A stretch of DNA of 22,842 bases, taken from the UHGV virus genome UHGV-1660455; one strand, written 5' to 3'. The position numbers and the translations under genes were made by a program. Every line of letters starts with the position of its first letter. Positions within the stretch are counted from its first letter, which is position 1. The notes under the pieces are model-generated. The model was not told the origin of the DNA and did not search any database. It saw nothing but the letters and a program-made list of their open reading frames with translations. Positions 16,822 to 22,842 of this stretch are shown here, piece after piece. The DNA comes from a virus.

Positions 16822-18743
16822 TATTCATCTCCAGATAATGCCCGCGCGTAATCCGCCAGGGTCTTGTTATTGTTACGGCTGCCTTCTTCCTCCAGCAGGC
16901 TGGCCAGAAGTGAATCAAGATTTAGCTGCCAGCGGGATATGCTTATACGCAGCGCCGCCAGTGCATAAACAAAGCAATCGAGCGCCTCATTTCGTCGTTT
17001 TTTGCTGTCCCAGACGATCTTTTTCTTTCCGTCTACCCATTTTTCCACCTGCTCTTCAGCTGTTAGTTGTTGGGCCTCTGTTAGATCGTAGATTTCTGGG
17101 TTATTCGGGAAATGAACCGCTCCCGCCAGCGGCTCGTCTCTTTGCGCCACCAGCGTGAAACGGTTATAAATCTGCTCTTTTGCGGTGTCTGTTCCTACCT
17201 CTGTGAGGTAAACACCATTCTTGTTACGCTTGCGTGGCATGTTCGCCACTGGCTTTCCATAAACCGACGCCCCCTTTATAGGGATCACACGAAACAGACC
17301 GTGTTTTTTTGAGCGGTTGTAGACGATGGTGGGATCAATGCCGCCAATATCCCAGCAAGTGCGGGATATAACCATTTCGAGACCGTTCTGGCGCTTATAC
17401 GTCCTGTTGATCGCTTCATCAACTCGAGCGAGAGTCGACTCATCATCATGACGACCCATAATGATAATTTTGTCGATAAGCCAGCTTTCCTCTCCCGGCC
17501 CCCATCCCCAAACACGCATTTCGTAACGGTCAAGCTGGGAGTCAATACCCGCTGTCAGATATGCCACTCGCTCCGGCACAGACGCTTCAAAGTGCTCTTT
17601 TCGTTCCGCTAAAACTTCAGCATCGGGTCGCTCACCTATTTTCGGTTCCCACGTTTCGCCCAGGGTCGTGTTAACGAAAGTTTTTCGCTTACCCGTATCA
17701 CCTTTTGTTTTTATCCAGTCCTTGACGATCTGCACCCAGGTTGTGAACGGGCTATATGCGGTCCAGATGTGGAATGTAACGCTATCAGGAGGTTCAATTT
17801 CGGTACCGGATGAAGAAAACCAGTTAAGGCCGTCTCGTGTCCAGATACCTGTTTCATCACAAATATACCTGGCCTCCAGAAATTCCAGCTCCTGTTGTTT
17901 AATCACACAGGCATTGTGTTCACAGAGGTAGTAAACGCTGGCAGGTTCTCCCGGAGACCATTTGAAGCCAAATGGTGTCTCTTTATCACCGAATTTCAGA
18001 TACTGCTCTTCCCCACAGTGTGGGCATGGAACATGGAACCGAAGAAAATGTTCAGACTCCTTAGCAGCTCTTTCTATCTGGCACGTACCTTTGACTTTCG
18101 GTGTAGATCCGCGAATGGATTTCGGCCATACAGAACCCTCAATACGCTTATCACCCAGAAAGGTGGGAGAACCTTCTTTCTCGATGTCATCATCGAAAGC
18201 GGCGAGCTCGTCGTAGCCAGCCACATCAACTGATTTTTCACGGTAGTTTTTTGCAGCCTTACCGCCCAGGCACCAGAAACCACGACCATTCGAGAAACGC
18301 TTCATGCTCAGCGTATTGTCCCGGTGTTTTTTACCGTACCAGGGAGCAAGCGCCAGCAACGTCGGAATATCACGAATGGTCGGTTCTACATGAGACTTCA
18401 TGAAGTTTTCAGCATCACCGTCGGTTGGTAACCATATTAGGGAGTTACGCTGTTTATGTTGGATGAAATATGCGTAAACGCCGAGCAACATTTTTGAGTA
18501 GCCGACACGAGCCGATTTAACGACATTCACCTCGCGAATATAGTCATTACCCATCGCATTCATAATTGCACGCTGAAATGGCAGTGTTTCCCAGCGCCCT
18601 TCCTGGTAGGCAGACTCTTTCGGGAGATAATAATTCTCATCTGCCCATTCAACTGCTGTTTGCGGTTGCGGCCGGTACAGCGAACGTAACCCCGCCCGCG
18701 CAGAGTGCTGCAGCCCCTTAACCTGACTGTTCGATATATTCAC
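16821..18743 (-). CDS. A: Terminase large subunit A (gpA; ATPase/endonuclease)
   Basis: 640-aa ORF near-colinear with lambda gpA (MNISNSQV... N-terminus; Walker and nuclease regions conserved). Confidence 0.97.
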
Positions 18744-19263
18744 TCAGCAACCCCGGTATCATTTCATCCAGCGCAGCTGCCTTGTTCATGGCCTTAATGA
18801 TGTCCTTCTTGAGGAAATCAATATGTCGGTTCTCCAGCTCCGGGAAGCGCCGCTGAACCGACAGAGGTATTCCATCGAGAATGCTGGCGATTTCTCCGGC
18901 TACCCGCGACAGCACGAACGTGCAGAATGCGGTCTCCACCACTTCAGCGGACTCTTTTGCATTTTTTAATTCCTGAGCGTCAGCCTGAGCTCGCGTAAGT
19001 CGGTGTCGCTCATATTCAATCGTGCCAGGTTGAAGATCGGACTCAGAAGCGATACGGAGATCTTCAACTTCCTTCCGCAACTTTTCATTTTCTATAGCTG
19101 CATCGCGCGCACTGTACCATTCGATTGCAGCAGCAGATTCAAAGAGAACCTCATTACCTTTGCCACCACCGCGGACAACCGGCATACCTTGCTCCTGCCA
19201 GTTCTGAATCGTTCGGACGCTTACCCCGAAAATTTCGGATAAGCGTTTTTTGTTAACCTCCAT
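18718..19263 (-). CDS. Nu1: Terminase small subunit Nu1
   Basis: 181-aa ORF, same length as lambda Nu1; N-terminal winged-helix region MEVNKK...IRTIQNWQEQGMPV.RGGGKGNEVL... essentially as in lambda. Confidence 0.96.
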   Translation of the reverse strand: MEVNKKRLSEIFGVSVRTIQNWQEQGMPVVRGGGKGNEVLFESAAAIEWYSARDAAIENEKLRKEVEDLRIASESDLQPGTIEYERHRLTRAQADAQELKNAKESAEVVETAFCTFVLSRVAGEIASILDGIPLSVQRRFPELENRHIDFLKKDIIKAMNKAAALDEMIPGLLSEYIEQSG

Positions 19264-19438
19264 GGCTTACTCCTGGCAAAAAACAGAGAAAGGAAACAAT
19301 CAACGGTAAACTTCCGTTTTCCTTGCTCAGCATTTCCTTTCTGGAGAGAGGACGTTTTTAACAAAAACAATGAGTAAACAAGAAGAAGAACGGAAATGGC
19401 ATAAACCAGAAAATTTTCATAAATAGCGAGAATCTGCG

Positions 19439-19450
19439 CGGACGCCGCCC
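19439..19450 (-). other. cos: cosN cohesive-end site (predicted 12-nt overhang 5'-GGGCGGCGTCCG-3' on the phage l-strand), with cosQ-like and cosB-like flanks
   Basis: The revcomp of 19400-19500 aligns by eye with the lambda right-end/left-end junction (...GTTACG|GGGCGGCG....|CGCTATTTATGAAAATTTTC.GG...), about 180 bp upstream of Nu1. Confidence 0.75.
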
Positions 19451-19511
19451 CGTAACAGGCCGGATCGCCGGAAAGGACCCGCAAACGATATTAATTATCA
19501 TTTGCATATCA

Positions 19512-20186
19512 TCATCGACGGCACTGCTGCCAGATAACACCACCGGGGAGACATTCCATCATGATGGCCGTGCGGACATAGGAAGCCAGTTCATCCATCG
19601 CTTTCTTGTCTGCTGCCATTTGCTTTGCAACATCCAGATCCGCACATTCAGCAGTATTTTTCAGCGCGTTATCAAGCACCGCTTCGAGATTGGTATCAAC
19701 GCCAGAGTTAACTTCAAATTTGTCGGCGCTGATGGTTACCTTGTTCTGTACTGGCTCATCACGCAGGATACCAAGGCTGATGTTGTAGACTTTGGTCACC
19801 GACTGAGGCTTTTCTAATTCGGCGGCGCGGATAGAACCACCAGCGATATTGGCTTCCTTGATGAATACCTCACCGTTCTTCACAACAAATGGTGAGGTAT
19901 CAATCTCAACGCCAAGCGTCATCGAAGCGCAATATTGCTGCTTACCAAAACGCGTATTGACCAGGTGTTCAACGGCAAATTTCTGCCCTTCTGATGTCAG
20001 AAAGGTAAAGTGATTTTCTTTCTGGTATTCGGTTGCTGTATGTCTGGTTTCAGCAAAGCCAAACTCGCGCAATTCAGCGGCACCAGATTTAGACGGCAGG
20101 TCACCTGACAGCAACGCGCCACGGAAAAAGAGCGAATACAGAACATCCGTCGCCGCACCGGATAACGTAATGATTTTCTGACCCAT
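19512..20186 (-). CDS. Conserved lambdoid-phage protein of unknown function, encoded just upstream of cos
   Basis: 224-aa ORF with an AAAGGAAA ribosome-binding site. It resembles proteins found at the right end of lambdoid genomes, but my recollection of the exact family is uncertain. Confidence 0.6.
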   Translation of the reverse strand: MGQKIITLSGAATDVLYSLFFRGALLSGDLPSKSGAAELREFGFAETRHTATEYQKENHFTFLTSEGQKFAVEHLVNTRFGKQQYCASMTLGVEIDTSPFVVKNGEVFIKEANIAGGSIRAAELEKPQSVTKVYNISLGILRDEPVQNKVTISADKFEVNSGVDTNLEAVLDNALKNTAECADLDVAKQMAADKKAMDELASYVRTAIMMECLPGGVIWQQCRR

Positions 20187-20446
20187 TATTTATTTCCTTT
20201 TAGGCGTGAGCCTGTCGCACGGCAAAGCCGCCGAAAGTTAACGGTTTGCCCAGGCTCACAGCTGAAAGACTTTCTTTGATGTGCGCGTGCGATGCGCATA
20301 AATGCCGCGCGATGCGGTTACTGTCTGAATATCAGGGTATTACTTCGTTTTAACCCCGGGTAAGGTAAGCATTCAGCCCGTCAGTGGTGGGACACTGATT
20401 CACGCAAAGAGGAGGAATGGCTGAATAACTCTTCGAAGGAAAAAGG

Positions 20447-20911
20447 ATGATCACCAAAGTAAAAATCAAGTTTATTTCCCCTATTGATGGATCGGTATCA
20501 GATACCCCCACGGAGCATGCAATTCCCGTAGTTCCATTGACAGTATGGCCAAGTAGCTCAAAAGATATAAACGTTTATAAACCAAATGGATTGAAGGCTG
20601 GTGCCTACGCACTTATAGATACCGGAGCAGATCTTTGCTATGTGGATTCAGACTTTGCTGACGATTTAAAACTCCCAATCGCGGAAAAAACAACTGTGAG
20701 CGGAGCCACCTCAACAATAGAAACTACAGTTCGGCATGCGGTAATATCGTTCACTGAGGACGAAAGAGTTTTTTCAACAGAATTGACTTCAGTGCCATTG
20801 GTAAGTAACGGGAGAAAATTCCAAGTCGTTTTCGGAATGCAACTAATTAAAATGGGCGCCCTTACGATGGATTTTTCCAATCAAGTATTTGAGTTAACAT
20901 TTTTTAACTAA
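20447..20911 (+). CDS. Retropepsin-like (clan AA) aspartic protease, 154 aa; AT-rich moron gene on the strand opposite the late operon
   Basis: ORF with a good Shine-Dalgarno (AAGGAAAAAGG-ATG) and the canonical aspartic-protease signature hydrophobic-hydrophobic-D-T-G-A (..YALIDTGADLCYVD..). Markedly lower GC than the flanking phage genes. Confidence 0.75.
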   Translation: MITKVKIKFISPIDGSVSDTPTEHAIPVVPLTVWPSSSKDINVYKPNGLKAGAYALIDTGADLCYVDSDFADDLKLPIAEKTTVSGATSTIETTVRHAVISFTEDERVFSTELTSVPLVSNGRKFQVVFGMQLIKMGALTMDFSNQVFELTFFN

Positions 20912-21055
20912 CCCCCCAGGGATACCTCCCTCTTTTGCAAGACTGGATAAGGGCATTGCTTTTGCTGTTTTCCTAGAATCGGTACCAGAATTGAGTTGCG
21001 ATTTAATGTCTTTTAATTCGCTCTCAATTCTCTTTACACGTTCAGCTAAAGTCAT
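20894..21055 (-). CDS. Small hypothetical protein (53 aa, N-terminal predicted helix ERVKRIESELKDIKSQL), convergent with and overlapping the 3' end of the protease gene
   Basis: Hand-translated; absent from the ORF track because it is under 60 aa. Strong ribosome-binding site (AAGAGG, 6 nt before the ATG). Same low-GC module. Confidence 0.35.
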   Translation of the reverse strand: MTLAERVKRIESELKDIKSQLNSGTDSRKTAKAMPLSSLAKEGGIPGGLVKKC

Positions 21056-21176
21056 GATTGCCTCTTAATAATCGCTTAACATCTACAAAGCCTTCCCGAA
21101 GACAATACATACCATTATCAAGCCCACCAGCAGGTGAGCTTTGTAATGGAAAGCCGTTGTGAAAGTGGCTCTCAAA

Positions 21177-21194
21177 AACCACAGATTTGTGGTT
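21177..21194 (-). terminator. Weak hairpin (AACCACA-GATT-TGTGGTT) with a U-run on the minus-strand RNA, at the 3' end of the Rha-like gene
   Basis: 7-bp inverted repeat overlapping the stop codon by 2 nt; followed on the minus-strand RNA by UUUUGAG. Confidence 0.35.
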
Positions 21195-21879
21195 ATGCGG
21201 CCAAGCGGTGCTGCTCTTCGATAAGTGGCTGGCGGTGATTACGCTCGAACATGCCGCGCAGCACTTCTTTGCGTTGTTCGAAGTCCCACCCCATGCTGAT
21301 GAATACCGTGTTGGCGCGCTGTAGCTCGGTGATGCAGTGAATTTGTTCCGGCGTCAGGTAATCGCGGATCGGCTCTTTCTTCCCGATTTCGTGATGCACG
21401 CGGAACTTGGCCGCCGTCATGCCCAGCGCCAGTCGGTTAATCAGGTCAGCTTCGTTGCTGAAGTGATGCGGGGCGATCTGCTTACCCTGCGCCTCACGCT
21501 CATGCTTGATGGCATCGGTCATAGGCTTGTACTCCAGACGCGCCGAGTTGCGATCCATCTTCTTCTTCGCCAGCGCGCTGCGCATAGTGAAGAATTCATA
21601 TACCAAGCGCTTTTTGAATTCACGCACAACTTCATTGTTTCGCATGTAGGTGATCAACAGCGTGGTTTGCTGTTCGTTTAGCAGTGCTATTTCCTGCTTC
21701 TGCATGCCCCCATCCGTTTGAAAGGGTCGCATTTCAAATTCCACCCTTCCGAATTCTTCGAGGTCGCTTTTGTACTTCCTGATGAGTTGAATCACTGGCT
21801 TGTGATCCTTCATAACACCACTGGCGATCACTGCCGAGTTGGTGACCAGGTCTAGCTTCTTGATTTCTACTAATTGCAT
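21193..21879 (-). CDS. rha: Phage regulatory protein of the Rha family (antirepressor-like)
   Basis: The N-terminus ..LVTNSAVIASGVMKDHKPVIQLIRK.. fits the Rha-domain pattern (T.SS..IA...GK.H..V.R.IR). The tracked ORF runs to 21963, but the Met at 21879 has a plausible ribosome-binding site and begins the conserved domain. Confidence 0.7.
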   Translation of the reverse strand: MQLVEIKKLDLVTNSAVIASGVMKDHKPVIQLIRKYKSDLEEFGRVEFEMRPFQTDGGMQKQEIALLNEQQTTLLITYMRNNEVVREFKKRLVYEFFTMRSALAKKKMDRNSARLEYKPMTDAIKHEREAQGKQIAPHHFSNEADLINRLALGMTAAKFRVHHEIGKKEPIRDYLTPEQIHCITELQRANTVFISMGWDFEQRKEVLRGMFERNHRQPLIEEQHRLAA

Positions 21880-22032
21880 GGCGTGTACCTTTCTTTGAGA
21901 TGAACCTTTGCCGCACAGGAAATCAGCCCGTCGAGGCTCGCCAGCACTAACTGACTTCCTCAAAGGCTCATTTCAAAGGGTATGGTTCGACGTGGGTTGA
22001 ATGCGCTGCGGTGCGCGGTGAAATTCTGGCAT

Positions 22033-22057
22033 AAAAAAGCCCGACCGAAGTCAGGCT
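22033..22057 (-). terminator. Intrinsic terminator after Rz/Rz1 (stem AGCCUGAC / GUCGGGCU, UUCG loop, then UUUUUUAU on the minus-strand RNA)
   Basis: 8-bp stem with one G-U pair and a UUCG tetraloop followed by a U6 run; lies 20 nt beyond the Rz stop. Confidence 0.65.
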
Positions 22058-22076
22058 CTGTTATTTGGGTAACGAA

Positions 22077-22535
22077 TCATTTAAGACACTGCTCTTTGAT
22101 GTATTCCTGCAAATATCCAACCTGTTTCGTCACTGTGACGATTCGCTCTCTGAGGGTGAAATAATCCCGTTCAGCGGAGTCAGTAAGTCGGGGGCCGGTA
22201 ACATCGCCCAGGCCGCCGGTGCTGGTCGTTCCGTTCGCGGGACAGTTTGCGTTGAGCTGCAGCCGCTTACGGCCAGCAATGACATCGCTATGCAGACGCT
22301 CAATGGTTTCTTTCGCATCAGCCAGTTCTCCGGTGTATTTGGCATCCAGTGCAGCGACATCACGCTGGCGGGTCTGCATGTCTTTAATGGTGGCGGTCGC
22401 CAGGAGGAGTTTCTCAGTGGCCTTATCGCGCTGGTCTCTGTAAGTGATGGCGTTGTCGCGGTAGTGGTTCACGAAGAAATTAACGCCAGCACCAGCAACT
22501 GCAGCCAGTAACGCTTAACCAGTGCGCTAATCATG
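22077..22535 (-). CDS. Rz: Rz inner-membrane spanin subunit (i-spanin); the N-terminal transmembrane region appears interrupted by a frameshift
   Basis: The ..[28 protein letters not shown].. periplasmic domain is lambda Rz-like. The ATG at 22533-22535 overlaps the lysozyme stop but is in a different frame from the body of the gene. Confidence 0.85.
22130..22318 (-). CDS. Rz1: Rz1 outer-membrane lipoprotein spanin subunit (o-spanin), embedded in the +1 frame of Rz
   Basis: Lipobox LLAVSG|C followed by a Pro-rich segment ..[26 protein letters not shown].., closely resembling lambda Rz1; wholly nested inside Rz. Confidence 0.85.
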
Positions 22536-22842
22536 ACAGGAACAGAGCTCGCTCTGCCTTGCGGCGATTCGTGAGCCCCGGCATCACCTTTCCGCCTGAT
22601 TTATTCCAGCGCAGAAATTCATCTGCCGCGCCTTTTATATCGCCAGCATTCAGCTTTTTCAGCAGTGTAGATGTGGAAAGAGCACGCGACCCAACGTTGT
22701 AAGCGAACGACACCAGTGCGTCGAACTGGCCTTGTGTCAGCTTCACCCTGACAACTTTCAGCACGTCATTCTCATAACCAACAAGCCCTGTTTTCAGAAG
22801 CCTGTCAGCGGTTTGCTGGTCGATAGTCATACCGCGCTTTAC
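22531..22842 (-). CDS. Endolysin, P22 gp19 / T4 lysozyme-like (GH24 family); 3' part only, the 5' end lies beyond the window
   Basis: The C-terminus ...[11 protein letters not shown] and preceding ..QGQFDALVSFAYNVG.. match P22-type lysozymes, not the lambda R transglycosylase. The frame is open to the window edge. Confidence 0.85.
   Translation of the reverse strand, partial: VKRGMTIDQQTADRLLKTGLVGYENDVLKVVRVKLTQGQFDALVSFAYNVGSRALSTSTLLKKLNAGDIKGAADEFLRWNKSGGKVMPGLTNRRKAERALFLS

Follow-up and report, generated by a model that had tools for sequence, protein, structure and literature searches.

What does a 260-bp spacer crowded with repeats do between two divergent phage genes, and which of the two does it serve? 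The spacer lies in a virus genome (UHGV-1660455) of which we analyzed a stretch of 22,842 nucleotides, referred to here as the window, and it separates a leftward gene from a rightward gene for a retropepsin-like aspartic protease. A preliminary description had treated the repeats, a candidate promoter and a ribosome-binding-site-like motif as one set of operator or structured-RNA elements controlling the protease gene. We found that these features are split between two elements facing in opposite directions. The spacer consists of two phage cassettes placed back to back, both widely shared and independently mobile, each carrying a conserved, knotted RNA just 5' of the ribosome binding site (RBS) of a variable accessory gene. 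We consider it probable that the spacer is the junction of two portable leader cassettes, here called Module A and Module B, which act in cis and face apart across a decayed terminator (Table 1).

Table 1. Positions of the two modules, their structural parts and their associated genes in the window
Feature	Position	Strand	Remarks
phi80-gp66/N15-gp59-like gene	19512-20186	minus	cargo of Module A copy 1; phrog_17079 at 2e-127
Module A copy 1	20194-20299	minus	leader RNA of the phi80-gp66/N15-gp59-like gene
Long bulged hairpin	20197-20268	minus	basal, outer and inner helices plus apical CCG/CGG pairs
Basal helix	20268-20262 with 20203-20197	minus	CUUUCAG with CUAAAAG
Outer helix	20257-20251 with 20214-20208	minus	GAGCCUG with CAGGCUC
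Inner helix	20250-20245 with 20226-20221	minus	GGCAAA with UUUGCC
Six-nt bulge	20215-20220	minus	GUGCGA; 3' strand of the pseudoknot, partner of the Pa loop
Helix Pa	20283-20297	minus	GCGC 20297-20294, loop AUCGCAC 20293-20287, GCGC 20286-20283
Decayed late-direction terminator	20300-20317	minus	between the modules
Module B	about 20320-20446	plus	serves the protease gene
Module B promoter part	20320-20372	plus	
Inverted repeat	20333-20338 / 20353-20358	plus	CAGGGT / ACCCCG; in the promoter spacer
Module B structured 5' UTR	20373-20446	plus	82.6 bits, E = 3e-18 with model R2
P2	20373-20378 with 20419-20424	plus	UCAGCC with GGCUGA
P3	20379-20386 with 20393-20400	plus	loop GUGGGA
P4	20410-20414 or 20407-20411, with 20429-20433	plus	AGGAG or AAGAG, with CUCUU
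Retropepsin-like aspartic protease gene	20447-20911	plus	cargo of Module B
Module A copy 2, diverged	21890-22018	minus	leader of the Rha gene; 35 bits, E = 2.3e-6
Intrinsic terminator after Rz	22033-22058	minus	just upstream of copy 2; read by eye

The two halves of the spacer were found both apart and together. Module A occurs without Module B in phi80, HK639, mEp390, AsXd-1 and others, and Module B without Module A in HK633, ES18, HK022 and SPN3UB, while mEp213, mEp043 and E. coli 97.3 have both side by side, with differing flanking genes. Given that each half occurs without the other and that the pair is found with varied flanking genes, the two halves move independently. We regard the modular make-up of the spacer, and the assignment of one gene to each module, as established. 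Both modules were found in many enterobacterial temperate phages, with at least 11 unrelated gene families downstream of Module A and at least 23 downstream of Module B; neither was found in lambda. Homologues of Module A copy 1 with 72-99% identity are present in the four phages named first above, as well as in Klebsiella and Enterobacter phages. Module A as a whole, which is present in P22 and Stx2a-converting phages as in phi80, is widespread in Enterobacterales, and a 261-base stretch containing one of its subtypes gave matches in 588 of the 5426 complete E. coli genomes. Module A invariably points the same way as the late genes, usually lies directly 3' of an intrinsic terminator and, in most phages, has no divergent gene beside it. 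Its cargo comprises Rha, KilA-N, GIY-YIG nuclease, tail-tip-like and glycosyltransferase-like proteins as well as small ORFs; the phi80 homologue of the cargo in the window is annotated as 'similar to N15 gp59'.

With membership of an Rfam family defined by a covariance-model score at or above its gathering threshold, none of the 4227 models of Rfam 15 (including the C4 antisense RNA, pistol, the DUF2815 RNA and riboswitches) matched anywhere in the window, nor in seven further phage loci carrying the modules. When E-values up to 10 were allowed, positions 19900-20700 returned only a Tetrahymena snoRNA (22 bits, threshold 70) and the DUF2815 RNA (15.7 bits, threshold 41.2), both sub-threshold. 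Searching the literature by topic and with sequence strings returned no previous description of either leader cassette. The modules are candidates for two new Rfam families.

In Module A, we confirmed the 9-bp inverted repeat reported earlier (GTGAGCCTG, 20206-20214; CAGGCTCAC, 20251-20259) and the repeat that it encloses (GGCAAA, 20221-20226; TTTGCC, 20245-20250), and found that the outer one reaches 18 nt per arm (20197-20214 with 20251-20268). The resulting large hairpin has a folding energy of -33.4 kcal/mol (z = -2.86), matched by 1 of 200 shuffled sequences. Six loop bases of the small hairpin Pa (UCGCAC, 20292-20287) constitute the 5' strand of a pseudoknot closed by the bulge of the large hairpin. 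A covariance model built from homologues (R1) scored this copy of Module A at 114.5 bits (E = 4e-24).

Structure prediction combined with covariance analysis across homologous loci had been proposed as a check on the preliminary description; it showed that the structures are conserved and that their helices covary. The term "structured-RNA elements" was apt in kind, since each half of the spacer contains RNA structures that are conserved and covary. Among 64 distinct Module A sequences, paired cells amounted to 92% and double changes were seen in 26 of the 35 pairs; with the partners shifted by 1-3 columns as a control, only 33-50% were paired. A plain MAFFT alignment gave 90% paired cells, a value equalled by none of 500 shuffles. 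The Pa stem was paired in 100% of cells across the 64 sequences, one of which had a compensatory GCGU/ACGC version. The 6-bp pseudoknot, which is absent from the model, was 98.4-98.8% paired, with double changes in 3-4 of its 6 pairs and eight compensatory versions in all. The basal helix covaries (CCUACAG/CUAUAGG, CCUAUAG/CUAUAGG and CUUUCAG/CUGAAAG), and GC, AU, CG and UG pairs were all seen in the inner helix; the outer helix was partly fixed by the search pattern, and its covariation rests on fewer, model-found copies. The conserved unpaired bases are an AGAG linker and a C-A mismatch. We regard the RNA structures of this module, as well as those of Module B below, as demonstrated.

These data bear on two readings in which the spacer works as DNA. 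According to one, the modules are conserved boundary or linker DNA that aids homologous recombination among mosaic phages and have no RNA function. The same junctions do flank many different cargo genes, and among E. coli phages with different neighbouring genes the module junctions share 93-99% identity. However, copies at only 70-80% identity keep their pairing through the double substitutions described above, which recombination alone does not select, and the distances to the Shine-Dalgarno sequence (SD) and the ATG are fixed: of 101 copies, 99 have the 3' anchor of Module A, GACAGGCUC, 19-23 nt upstream of the ATG, and two have it 14 nt upstream. We consider this reading highly improbable. 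The other, taken from the preliminary description, makes the hairpin, the repeats and a TTGATG/TAAATG pair a DNA operator and promoter for the protease gene. Although these elements lie upstream of that gene in the window, and a dimeric regulator could recognise an inverted repeat, a duplex DNA site cannot account for a hairpin loop and a bulge 70 nt away changing in a compensatory manner. Module A mostly lacks an adjoining divergent gene, protease-type genes accompany Module B only, and the hexamers are unconserved and fail a consensus test. Control of the protease gene by such an operator is scarcely credible to us; both the large hairpin and the hairpin containing GCGATGCG belong to the leader of the opposite-strand gene.

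The hexamers themselves are present (TTGATG, 20276-20281; TAAATG, 20299-20304; spacing 17 nt), but the sigma-70 promoter that they were thought to form is not supported. For this site we asked that the second base of the -10 hexamer be A and the sixth T, and that the site be conserved in homologues. The -10 hexamer ends in G rather than T, while E. coli 97.3 and phi80, the closest homologues, have ACGATG or ACGGTG at the -35 site. A sigma-70 consensus scan of both strands from 19400 to 21300 found none, the mean for shuffled sequences being 2.6, and these positions fall within Module A, an element of the opposite strand. The direct repeats of GCGATGCG also exist, at 20289-20296 and 20309-20316 rather than at about 20287 and 20303, but they do not form a repeat unit. 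One copy falls within the Pa region read on the plus strand and is part of the small hairpin of Module A; the other is part of the stem of the decayed terminator. The latter reads CCGC-AUCGC-GCGG and then CAUUUAU on the minus strand, and it aligns with canonical terminators in most homologues (GCCGCCAUCACGCGGCUUUUUUAU among others). When an intrinsic terminator was defined as a stem rich in G+C, 5 bp or longer, with a U-tract immediately after it, the window copy, with its 4-bp stem and CAUUUAU tail, was not called by the terminator scan; the aligned position in E. coli 97.3 (AGCCGCCATCACGCGGCT TTTTTATG) passed.

From its context, we infer that it is the minus strand of Module A that is functional. 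On this strand the leftward gene starts with an ATG at 20186-20184, preceded by the SD AAGGA (20199-20195), whose first three bases (20199-20197) lie within the basal helix. In partition functions calculated without the pseudoknot, the predicted probability of the SD being unpaired was 0.38-0.49, i.e., the SD is only partly paired. A reading in which the plus strand acts instead, as a cis-antisense RNA pairing with the ribosome-binding region of the leftward gene, draws on the stability of the antisense fold, which matches that of the sense fold (-44.7 vs. -43.3 kcal/mol), on the conserved C-A mismatch of the basal helix, which turns into a U-G pair on the opposite strand, and on the 20.2 bits that R1 gives the plus strand. 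The last of these can be attributed to the palindromic nature of Module A. Furthermore, no conserved promoter can exist on the cargo-gene side, as this flank is a variable coding region comprising at least 11 gene families, and there is no terminator in the plus direction. G-U outnumbered A-C by only 64 to 35 over the modelled helices, and by about 53 to 14 in the inner helix and pseudoknot when two poorly paired columns were excluded. We judge the plus-strand reading very unlikely.

Several other candidate features of Module A were rejected. A 37-codon ORF over the module (20186-20299, minus strand) has a start that varies (ATG, TTG, CTG, ACG, CCG, CAG), and its indels are non-multiples of three. 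Within the module there is no conserved TAnnnT that might indicate a promoter, a perfect TATAAT being confined to one subtype. A conserved alternative in which the AGAG linker pairs with the basal 5' strand breaks in the CCUACAG subtype.

Two further readings retain the minus-strand fold and assign it another task. Module A may mainly be a signal for processing by RNase III or RNase E, of the type found in T7 and lambda, at which the accessory mRNA would be cut from the late polycistronic transcript, with no control of translation by Module A itself. Like the T7 and lambda RNase III hairpins, it is long and irregular, has an asymmetric internal loop and lies between the cistrons of a polycistronic phage RNA, here with a terminator hairpin and U-rich sequence immediately before it. 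Its basal, outer and inner helices are predicted to stack to roughly 25 bp, within the range of an RNase III duplex (about 20 bp or more). In contrast to those hairpins, however, its bulge takes part in a conserved pseudoknot, and this loop-to-bulge contact is the best-conserved tertiary feature of Module A; we know of no RNase III site that needs one. The tight spacing of the module to SD and ATG also points to translation, and a role mainly in processing seems to us unlikely.

Alternatively, Module A, and perhaps Module B, may be a sensor, either riboswitch-like or a site at which a protein or sRNA gates the SD helix; a self-cleaving RNA is the less likely variant. The compact pseudoknotted fold with its conserved unpaired bases, the RBS within the closing helix and the wide occurrence in Enterobacterales are all consistent with a sensor, and a pseudoknotted 5' leader fold with a basal helix predicted to touch the SD is what a riboswitch would be expected to have. 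However, the downstream genes have no common metabolic or transport theme, most being of unknown function, no conserved alternative pairing was found by inspection of the Module A alignment, and no Rfam riboswitch or ribozyme matched. We think a sensor quite unlikely. The nearest known ribozyme is a useful comparison: pistol (RF02679), which is phage-associated, has a 6-bp pseudoknot between a 5' hairpin loop and the internal loop of the next helix, with the partner strand on the 5' side, between P2 and P3, and a conserved G-U cleavage site. Module A shares the 6-bp pseudoknot joining a 5' hairpin loop to an internal loop. Its partner strand, however, lies 3' and directly abuts the outer helix, whereas that of pistol lies 5' of the inner hairpin, and its 14-30 nt linker is unlike pistol. 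With the partner on the wrong side and no RF02679 match even at E <=10, Module A was rejected as a pistol ribozyme. The joint reading, in which Module A is a new sensing RNA class gating accessory genes (a translational switch that resembles a riboswitch or responds to a factor; less likely, an RNA that processes itself) and Module B a second new class, is likewise unlikely in our estimation. Were it true, Module A would gate genes such as rha within late operons in phages of the P22, phi80 and Stx types, and Module B would set the expression of antisense-oriented morons in lysogens. The toxicity of rha has long been known to depend on a host factor (IHF), and Module A could be the missing link in this dependence.

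Module B has a candidate promoter 5' of a structured 5' UTR. A TAnnnT motif lies 6-7 nt 5' of TCAGCC in all 73 distinct Module B versions, its middle three bases varying; T7, A8 and T12 are invariant in the Module B alignment (A5), and the module has the conserved T-12, A-11 and T-7 by which we judged a -10 hexamer. In the window, the candidate -10 is TAAGGT (20361-20366), 15 nt from a -35-like TTACTT (20340-20345). Compared with a -35 near TTGACA at 16-18 nt, the -35 is poor: the best -35-like hexamers across Module B are TTGCTT or TTACTT, with spacers of 15-16 nt, and the consensus scan made no call. Transcription probably starts at or beside the first strand of P2. The upstream repeat CAGGGT/ACCCTG was rejected as an RNA helix: it had no compensatory changes and 20 A-C cells, and its right arm is missing in three versions.

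In the 5' UTR, P2 crosses P4, which makes the fold a pseudoknot. P3 and P4 covary. P2 is invariant save for wobble changes, and no double compensatory change was found in it; the same therefore holds for the pseudoknot of Module B. When an A position in P2 was forced, only A to G was recovered (8 of 8 real hits), with the wobble pair kept. G-U outnumbered A-C by 65 to 7, the sense strand folded better in 41 of 46 sequences (p = 1e-7), and we regard the strand of Module B as established. The start codon lies 74-81 nt 3' of UCAGCC in 21 of the 23 downstream ORF families. An AGGAGG at 20410-20415, previously described as an orphan RBS, is present but makes up the 5' strand of the covarying P4. 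The mini-ORF that follows it (ATG GCT GAA TAA, 20418-20429) also exists, but its ATG is ATA or ACG in other versions. The protease gene itself has an ordinary SD, AAGGA (20436-20440), six nt 5' of its ATG at 20447, which had been missed.

The product of this gene matched Pfam Asp_protease_2 at 26.7 bits (cut-off 24.3), and the same ORF lies 3' of Module B in 11 IMG/VR loci; a tblastn search of the phage collection with the protease matched nothing. A 53-codon ORF converges on the gene and overlaps its 3' end. In ES18, HK022, HK633, SPN3UB and E. coli prophages, Module B lies 5' of genes antisense to the late operon. These are extra genes between otherwise adjacent conserved phage genes, as morons are: between tail genes M and L in ES18, between I and J in HK022, before the tape-measure gene in SPN3UB, and between the lysis genes and terminase in HK633 and the window. 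ES18 gp25 and HK022 gp23 are annotated as morons, and both have Module B. As for the terminator that a moron should have, no terminator-like site was found 3' of the protease stop codon (20911).

Virulence, exclusion and defence are among the functions of moron genes in temperate phages, and their expression is usually put down to their "own promoter and terminator". The moron of lambdoid phages (Juhala et al., 2000, summarised in PMC3594210) is an extra gene that is said to have its own promoter and terminator and is horizontally spread. The genes studied here resemble lambdoid morons in being inserted between conserved late genes. The classical description, however, comprises a promoter and a terminator only, whereas here one cassette of promoter and structured 5' UTR (Module B) serves at least 23 unrelated ORF families, and a second, promoterless cassette (Module A) serves late-oriented accessory genes.

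In the reading that we prefer, of two leader cassettes acting in cis, Module A would be transcribed within the read-through RNA of the late operon. Its small hairpin and long bulged hairpin would be locked together by the loop-to-bulge pseudoknot, and the base of the fold would hold the 5' half of the SD of the following gene. Module B would give the antisense-oriented protease gene its own weak sigma-70-type promoter (-10 TAAGGT), with a 5' UTR whose start coincides with or adjoins the first pseudoknot strand (P2/P4, with P3 embedded) and a structure ending a few nt before the SD. Each RNA would work in cis on its own downstream gene and may control translation or mRNA stability. In this way an accessory gene exchanged horizontally would gain a structured 5' end that does not depend on context, by which initiation of translation would be set and the mRNA protected.

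Pseudoknotted translational leaders are known from the T4 gene 32 mRNA, the rpsO/S15 operator and the expression platforms of the preQ1-II and SAM-II riboswitches. As in the modules, the pseudoknot lies directly 5' of the SD or includes it and acts in cis on one gene; the modules differ in having mutually unrelated downstream genes, and they have no sequence or model similarity to these leaders. The hairpin in the ompA 5' UTR, a 5'-terminal stabiliser, lies within a few nt of the RNA 5' end, as is predicted here: Module B would start beside P2, and Pa of Module A begins two nt after the terminator U-tract. The folds of the modules are, however, far more elaborate than a single hairpin. The put sites of HK022 and HK639 encode antitermination RNAs and lie between early promoters, which they closely follow, and terminators. 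These too are cis-acting structured RNAs of lambdoid phages, and HK639 has Module A as well, but Module A lies downstream of late-region terminators and abuts the RBS.

Two conserved pseudoknotted leaders thus serve dozens of unrelated cargo genes across the phages of Enterobacterales, and model phages are among the carriers, i.e., P22, phi80 and Stx2a-converting phages for Module A, HK022 and ES18 for Module B. If these RNAs control translation or stability, they would be portable expression modules exchanged along with their cargo, and they would provide a testable handle on the regulation of rha and on prophage genes made in lysogens.

The window contains a second, diverged copy of Module A, with a CCGCA/UGCGG pseudoknot and an outer helix of GAGCCUUUG with CAAAGGUUC. 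The same subtype lies 5' of rha in P22, and phi80 rha is likewise preceded by Module A. The terminator after Rz reads AGCCUGAC-UUCG-GUCGGGCU, the final U of which starts a six-U run; the terminator scan did not list this site. In both the window and P22, the annotated start of Rha falls inside the RNA element, and these gene starts are corrected accordingly.

The window comes from a phi80/lambda-like prophage and holds its late region, which is read on the minus strand (Table). The 260-bp spacer (20187-20446) between the leftward phi80-gp66-like gene and the rightward protease gene was split cleanly in two by BLAST. Bases 20188-20302 alone, representing Module A, the leader of the phi80-gp66-like gene, occurred at 93-99% identity in phi80, HK639, mEp390, mEp237, FSL SP-016 and AsXd-1, with more diverged copies (72-80%) in further phages, among them those of Klebsiella and Enterobacter. 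Bases ~20300/20316 to 20440 alone, representing Module B, the leader of the protease gene, were present in HK633, ES18, HK022, SPN3UB and Oslo. A few E. coli prophages, as well as mEp213 and mEp043, carried both halves, with flanking genes unlike those of the window. In annotated records, Module A was always located just 5' of a late-direction gene, i.e., phi80 gp66, HK639 gene 13 (between tail genes), an AsXd-1 297-aa ORF, an EKP1 60-aa ORF, a GZ7 142-aa ORF and CobraSix Rha. The gene just 3' of Module B was always oriented against the late operon, e.g., ES18 gp25 and HK022 gp23 (both annotated morons), HK633_067, SPN3UB_0029, a DUF1883 gene and a 210-aa ORF. Most homologues carry a canonical late-direction terminator at the junction of the modules (in E. 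coli 97.3, AGCCGCCAUCACGCGGCU followed by a U-tract); that of the window is decayed, with a 4-bp stem and the tail CAUUUAU, and failed the terminator scan. The spacer is made up of two independently mobile cassettes, each with a conserved RNA structure that keeps a constant spacing to the ribosome-binding site of a downstream gene that varies, and their overall logic is that of the moron concept (PMC3594210). The structures of both modules are well supported; their functions we infer.

Table. Features of the late region and of the spacer, in window positions
Feature	Coordinates	Strand	Remarks
Lysozyme gene	22531-22830		First in order
Rz gene	22077-22472		After lysozyme
Terminator after Rz	22033-22058	-	AGCCUGAC-UUCG-GUCGGGCU + U-tract
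Module A, copy 2	21890-22018	-	Between post-Rz terminator and ATG 21878
Rha-family gene	21193-21963	-	After Rz; mechanical ORF start TTG 21963
53-codon ORF	20894-21055	-	Shine-Dalgarno AAGAGG (strong)
Retropepsin-like protease gene	20447-20911	+	After Rha-family gene
Module B	~20320-20446	+	Leader of protease gene
Module B hexamer TAAGGT	20361-20366	+	Closes upstream block
Module A	20194-20299	-	Leader of phi80-gp66-like gene
phi80 gp66/N15 gp59-like gene	19512-20186	-	Between protease gene and cos
cos			Between phi80-gp66-like gene and small terminase subunit
Small terminase subunit	18718-19263		After cos; large subunit next

Read from 20299 to 20194, Module A showed a fixed order of parts in a nine-phage alignment. 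The first, found in most copies, is an intrinsic terminator; next come the small hairpin GCGC-AUCGCAC-GCGC, a linker rich in purines and a long hairpin whose bulge is 6 nt (GUGCGA), and last CUAAAAGGAAA and the start codon. The long hairpin corresponds to the repeats that a preliminary description had put forward, together with a candidate sigma-70 promoter and an orphan AGGAGG, as candidate operator or structured-RNA elements controlling the protease gene. The 9-bp and 6-bp inverted repeats, both promoter hexamers, the AGGAGG and the 3-codon ORF are all located where it placed them, and both GCGATGCG copies are present, albeit at 20289 and 20309 instead of 20287 and 20303. The observation is real and far beyond chance; the inverted repeat runs to 18 nt per arm, and the predicted hairpin is unusually stable (z = -2.86, 1/200 shuffles as good). 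Structured RNA was the right kind of explanation, attached to the wrong gene and to the wrong promoter and ribosome-binding-site details. No sigma-70-like site passed a consensus scan of either strand of 19400-21300, and the AGGAGG aligns instead with the 5' strand of the Module B helix P4.

The covariance across homologous loci that had been proposed as a check was strong in Module A. A pattern scan of IMG/VR yielded 101 copies (77 distinct cores), with the distance from 3' anchor to ATG being 19-23 nt in 99 of them; at least 11 protein families, mutually unrelated by BLASTP, are encoded downstream. The small-hairpin loop is complementary to the bulge, and the two covary (UCGCAC/GUGCGA, UCUCAC/GUGAGA, UCACAC/GUGUGA, UCGUAC/GUACGA, UCGCAU/AUGCGA, CCGCA/UGCGG, UUCUCG/CGAGAA, CGCUC/GAGCG). 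When 41 sequences were aligned with MAFFT alone, 90.1% of Module A cells were paired; the pseudoknot was 98.8% paired with double changes in 3/6 pairs, the observed score was reached by 0/500 shuffles, and shifting partners by 1-3 columns left only 29-50% paired. A second alignment, of 64 distinct sequences, was made with R1, a covariance model of Module A built without the pseudoknot; it included Enterobacterales genome copies found by a pattern with no constraint on the long hairpin. Here 92% of cells were paired, with double changes in 26/35 pairs, and the unmodelled pseudoknot was 98.4% paired with four covarying pairs. The basal helix, which holds the first Shine-Dalgarno bases, also covaries (CUUUCAG/CUAAAAG, CCUACAG/CUAUAGG, CCUAUAG/CUAUAGG, CUUUCAG/CUGAAAG). 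A DNA operator fits poorly with the loop-to-bulge covariation. The modules may also be recombination linkers, although as DNA without an RNA role these too are a poor fit to it.

Sequence by itself leaves the strand of Module A unsettled. Sense and antisense folds are equal in stability, G-U exceeds A-C by 64 to 35 overall (~53 to 14 minus two poorly paired columns), and the basal helix has a conserved C-A mismatch that would become a U-G pair if read on the opposite strand. An antisense RNA may thus be considered. The late-gene strand is nevertheless favoured as sense, because the module always faces the same way with respect to the terminator, the Shine-Dalgarno sequence and the ATG, and because the far side is variable coding DNA with no room for a conserved promoter.

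Module B was analyzed in 88 distinct IMG/VR versions, sense being the window plus strand. Its upstream block is closed by a hexamer, TAnnnT, present in 73/73 distinct upstream versions 6-7 nt 5' of UCAGCC, with variable middle bases, a pattern expected of a sigma-70 -10 element and hence a candidate one. The candidate promoter looks weak, given its poor -35-like sequence (TTGCTT or TTACTT) 15-16 nt upstream. An inverted repeat 5' of the -10 was considered as an RNA helix and rejected, lacking covariation; it is probably promoter-spacer DNA. Three helices follow, i.e., P2 (UCAGCC with GGCUGA), P3 (8-bp hairpin, GUGGGA loop, U-G pair in the consensus) and P4 ((C/A)AGAGG with CCUCU(G/U)), with a Shine-Dalgarno sequence 3-8 nt 3' of P4. 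P3 and P4 covary, with one P3 pair showing four Watson-Crick types and 4/6 P4 pairs showing double changes. As GAG is repeated in the window, AAGAG (20407-20411) can pair equally well with CUCUU (20429-20433). P2 crosses P4 and would thereby form a pseudoknot; it showed no double changes among the Module B versions. In searches requiring a change at one P2 position, 8/8 real matches were A to G with a wobble pair kept, which is supportive, short of proof. The G-U excess over A-C (65 to 7) and better plus-strand folding (41/46 sequences, p = 1e-7) place the RNA on the protease-gene strand.

Twenty-three ORF families were found after Module B, 21 of them with the start codon 74-81 nt past UCAGCC. 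The families are unrelated by BLASTP and mostly 65-100 aa; they have a helical look and similar leucine spacing, and may be one fast-evolving superfamily instead of 23 unrelated families. In L154, an IMG/VR locus, a transposase-like ORF lies ~118 nt after UCAGCC, between Module B and the cargo position; this is a cassette disrupted by an IS element. The protease gene, being on the plus strand, is antisense to late transcription, as is bor in lambda. Its product matches Pfam Asp_protease_2 just over cut-off and had no tblastn match in 50,697 phage records; among IMG/VR contigs, the gene followed Module B 11 times. No terminator was found 3' of the gene. The 53-codon ORF is convergent with it and overlaps its last 18 bases, a layout similar to the ES18 gp24/gp25 pair.

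We propose that Module B would supply a constitutive promoter of low strength, together with a 5' UTR that begins with bases tied up in a pseudoknot, i.e., a protected 5' end and a context-insulated ribosome-binding site for an antisense-oriented moron expressed in the lysogen. Module A, without a conserved promoter, would be transcribed by late, antiterminated RNA polymerase passing the upstream terminator. Its predicted fold runs from two nt past the U-tract to within the Shine-Dalgarno sequence, limits that could allow it to set both ribosome access and how stable the downstream mRNA segment is. Alternatively, the structures may be pure processing sites or switches sensing a ligand or factor. 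Translational pseudoknot operators, 5' stabiliser hairpins, RNase III sites, pistol ribozymes and put RNAs are functional or topological analogies and not families of which the modules are members. Neither module belongs to any Rfam family; Rfam 15 gave no matches in the whole window, and none in the spacer region even at permissive thresholds. Literature searches by sequence string or topic found no description of shared structured leaders. Both elements would seem to be cis-acting RNA motifs of phages that are widespread and so far uncatalogued.

R1 detected a second, diverged Module A copy in the window (35 bits, E = 2.3e-6). The post-Rz terminator upstream of it is textbook-like by eye and absent from the terminator-scan list. 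The 21890-21963 stretch of the mechanical Rha ORF is part of this copy, and the true start is likely ATG 21878-21876 (MQLVEIKK...), which is preceded by a Shine-Dalgarno-like AAAGG at the 3' end of copy 2. The same subtype lies 5' of rha in P22 (NC_002371 ~39506-39660; L314 2007-2160), where the annotated GTG start (record position 39575) falls inside the Module A copy (36 bits); an ATG ~70 nt further down (MNELIANHDFDFRQ...) better matches the family spacing and the Rha N-terminus. In phi80, one copy precedes rha, annotated as "DNA synthesis inhibition in IHF- hosts", and another gp66. A 1995 paper, by its title, reportedly linked rha to IHF mutants.

Stx2a-converting phages have two late-region copies (L310 1134-1259 and 2500-2626), of a subtype found by BLAST in 73 Stx2a phage records; lambda has no copy. 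A 261-base stretch with one subtype occurred in 588/5426 complete E. coli genomes, 5' of Rha, KilA-N and GIY-YIG nuclease genes. High-scoring Module A copies (72-94 bits) in MAG contigs labelled Cellvibrionaceae, Bacillota and Collinsella (L257, L275, L280) are typical of enterobacterial phages and likely stem from binning contamination. Finally, the E. coli laboratory strains DH5alpha, TOP10, NEB 5-alpha and EPI300 have Module A (94% identity) through their phi80 lacZ-deltaM15 prophage remnant, so that common cloning hosts contain the element.
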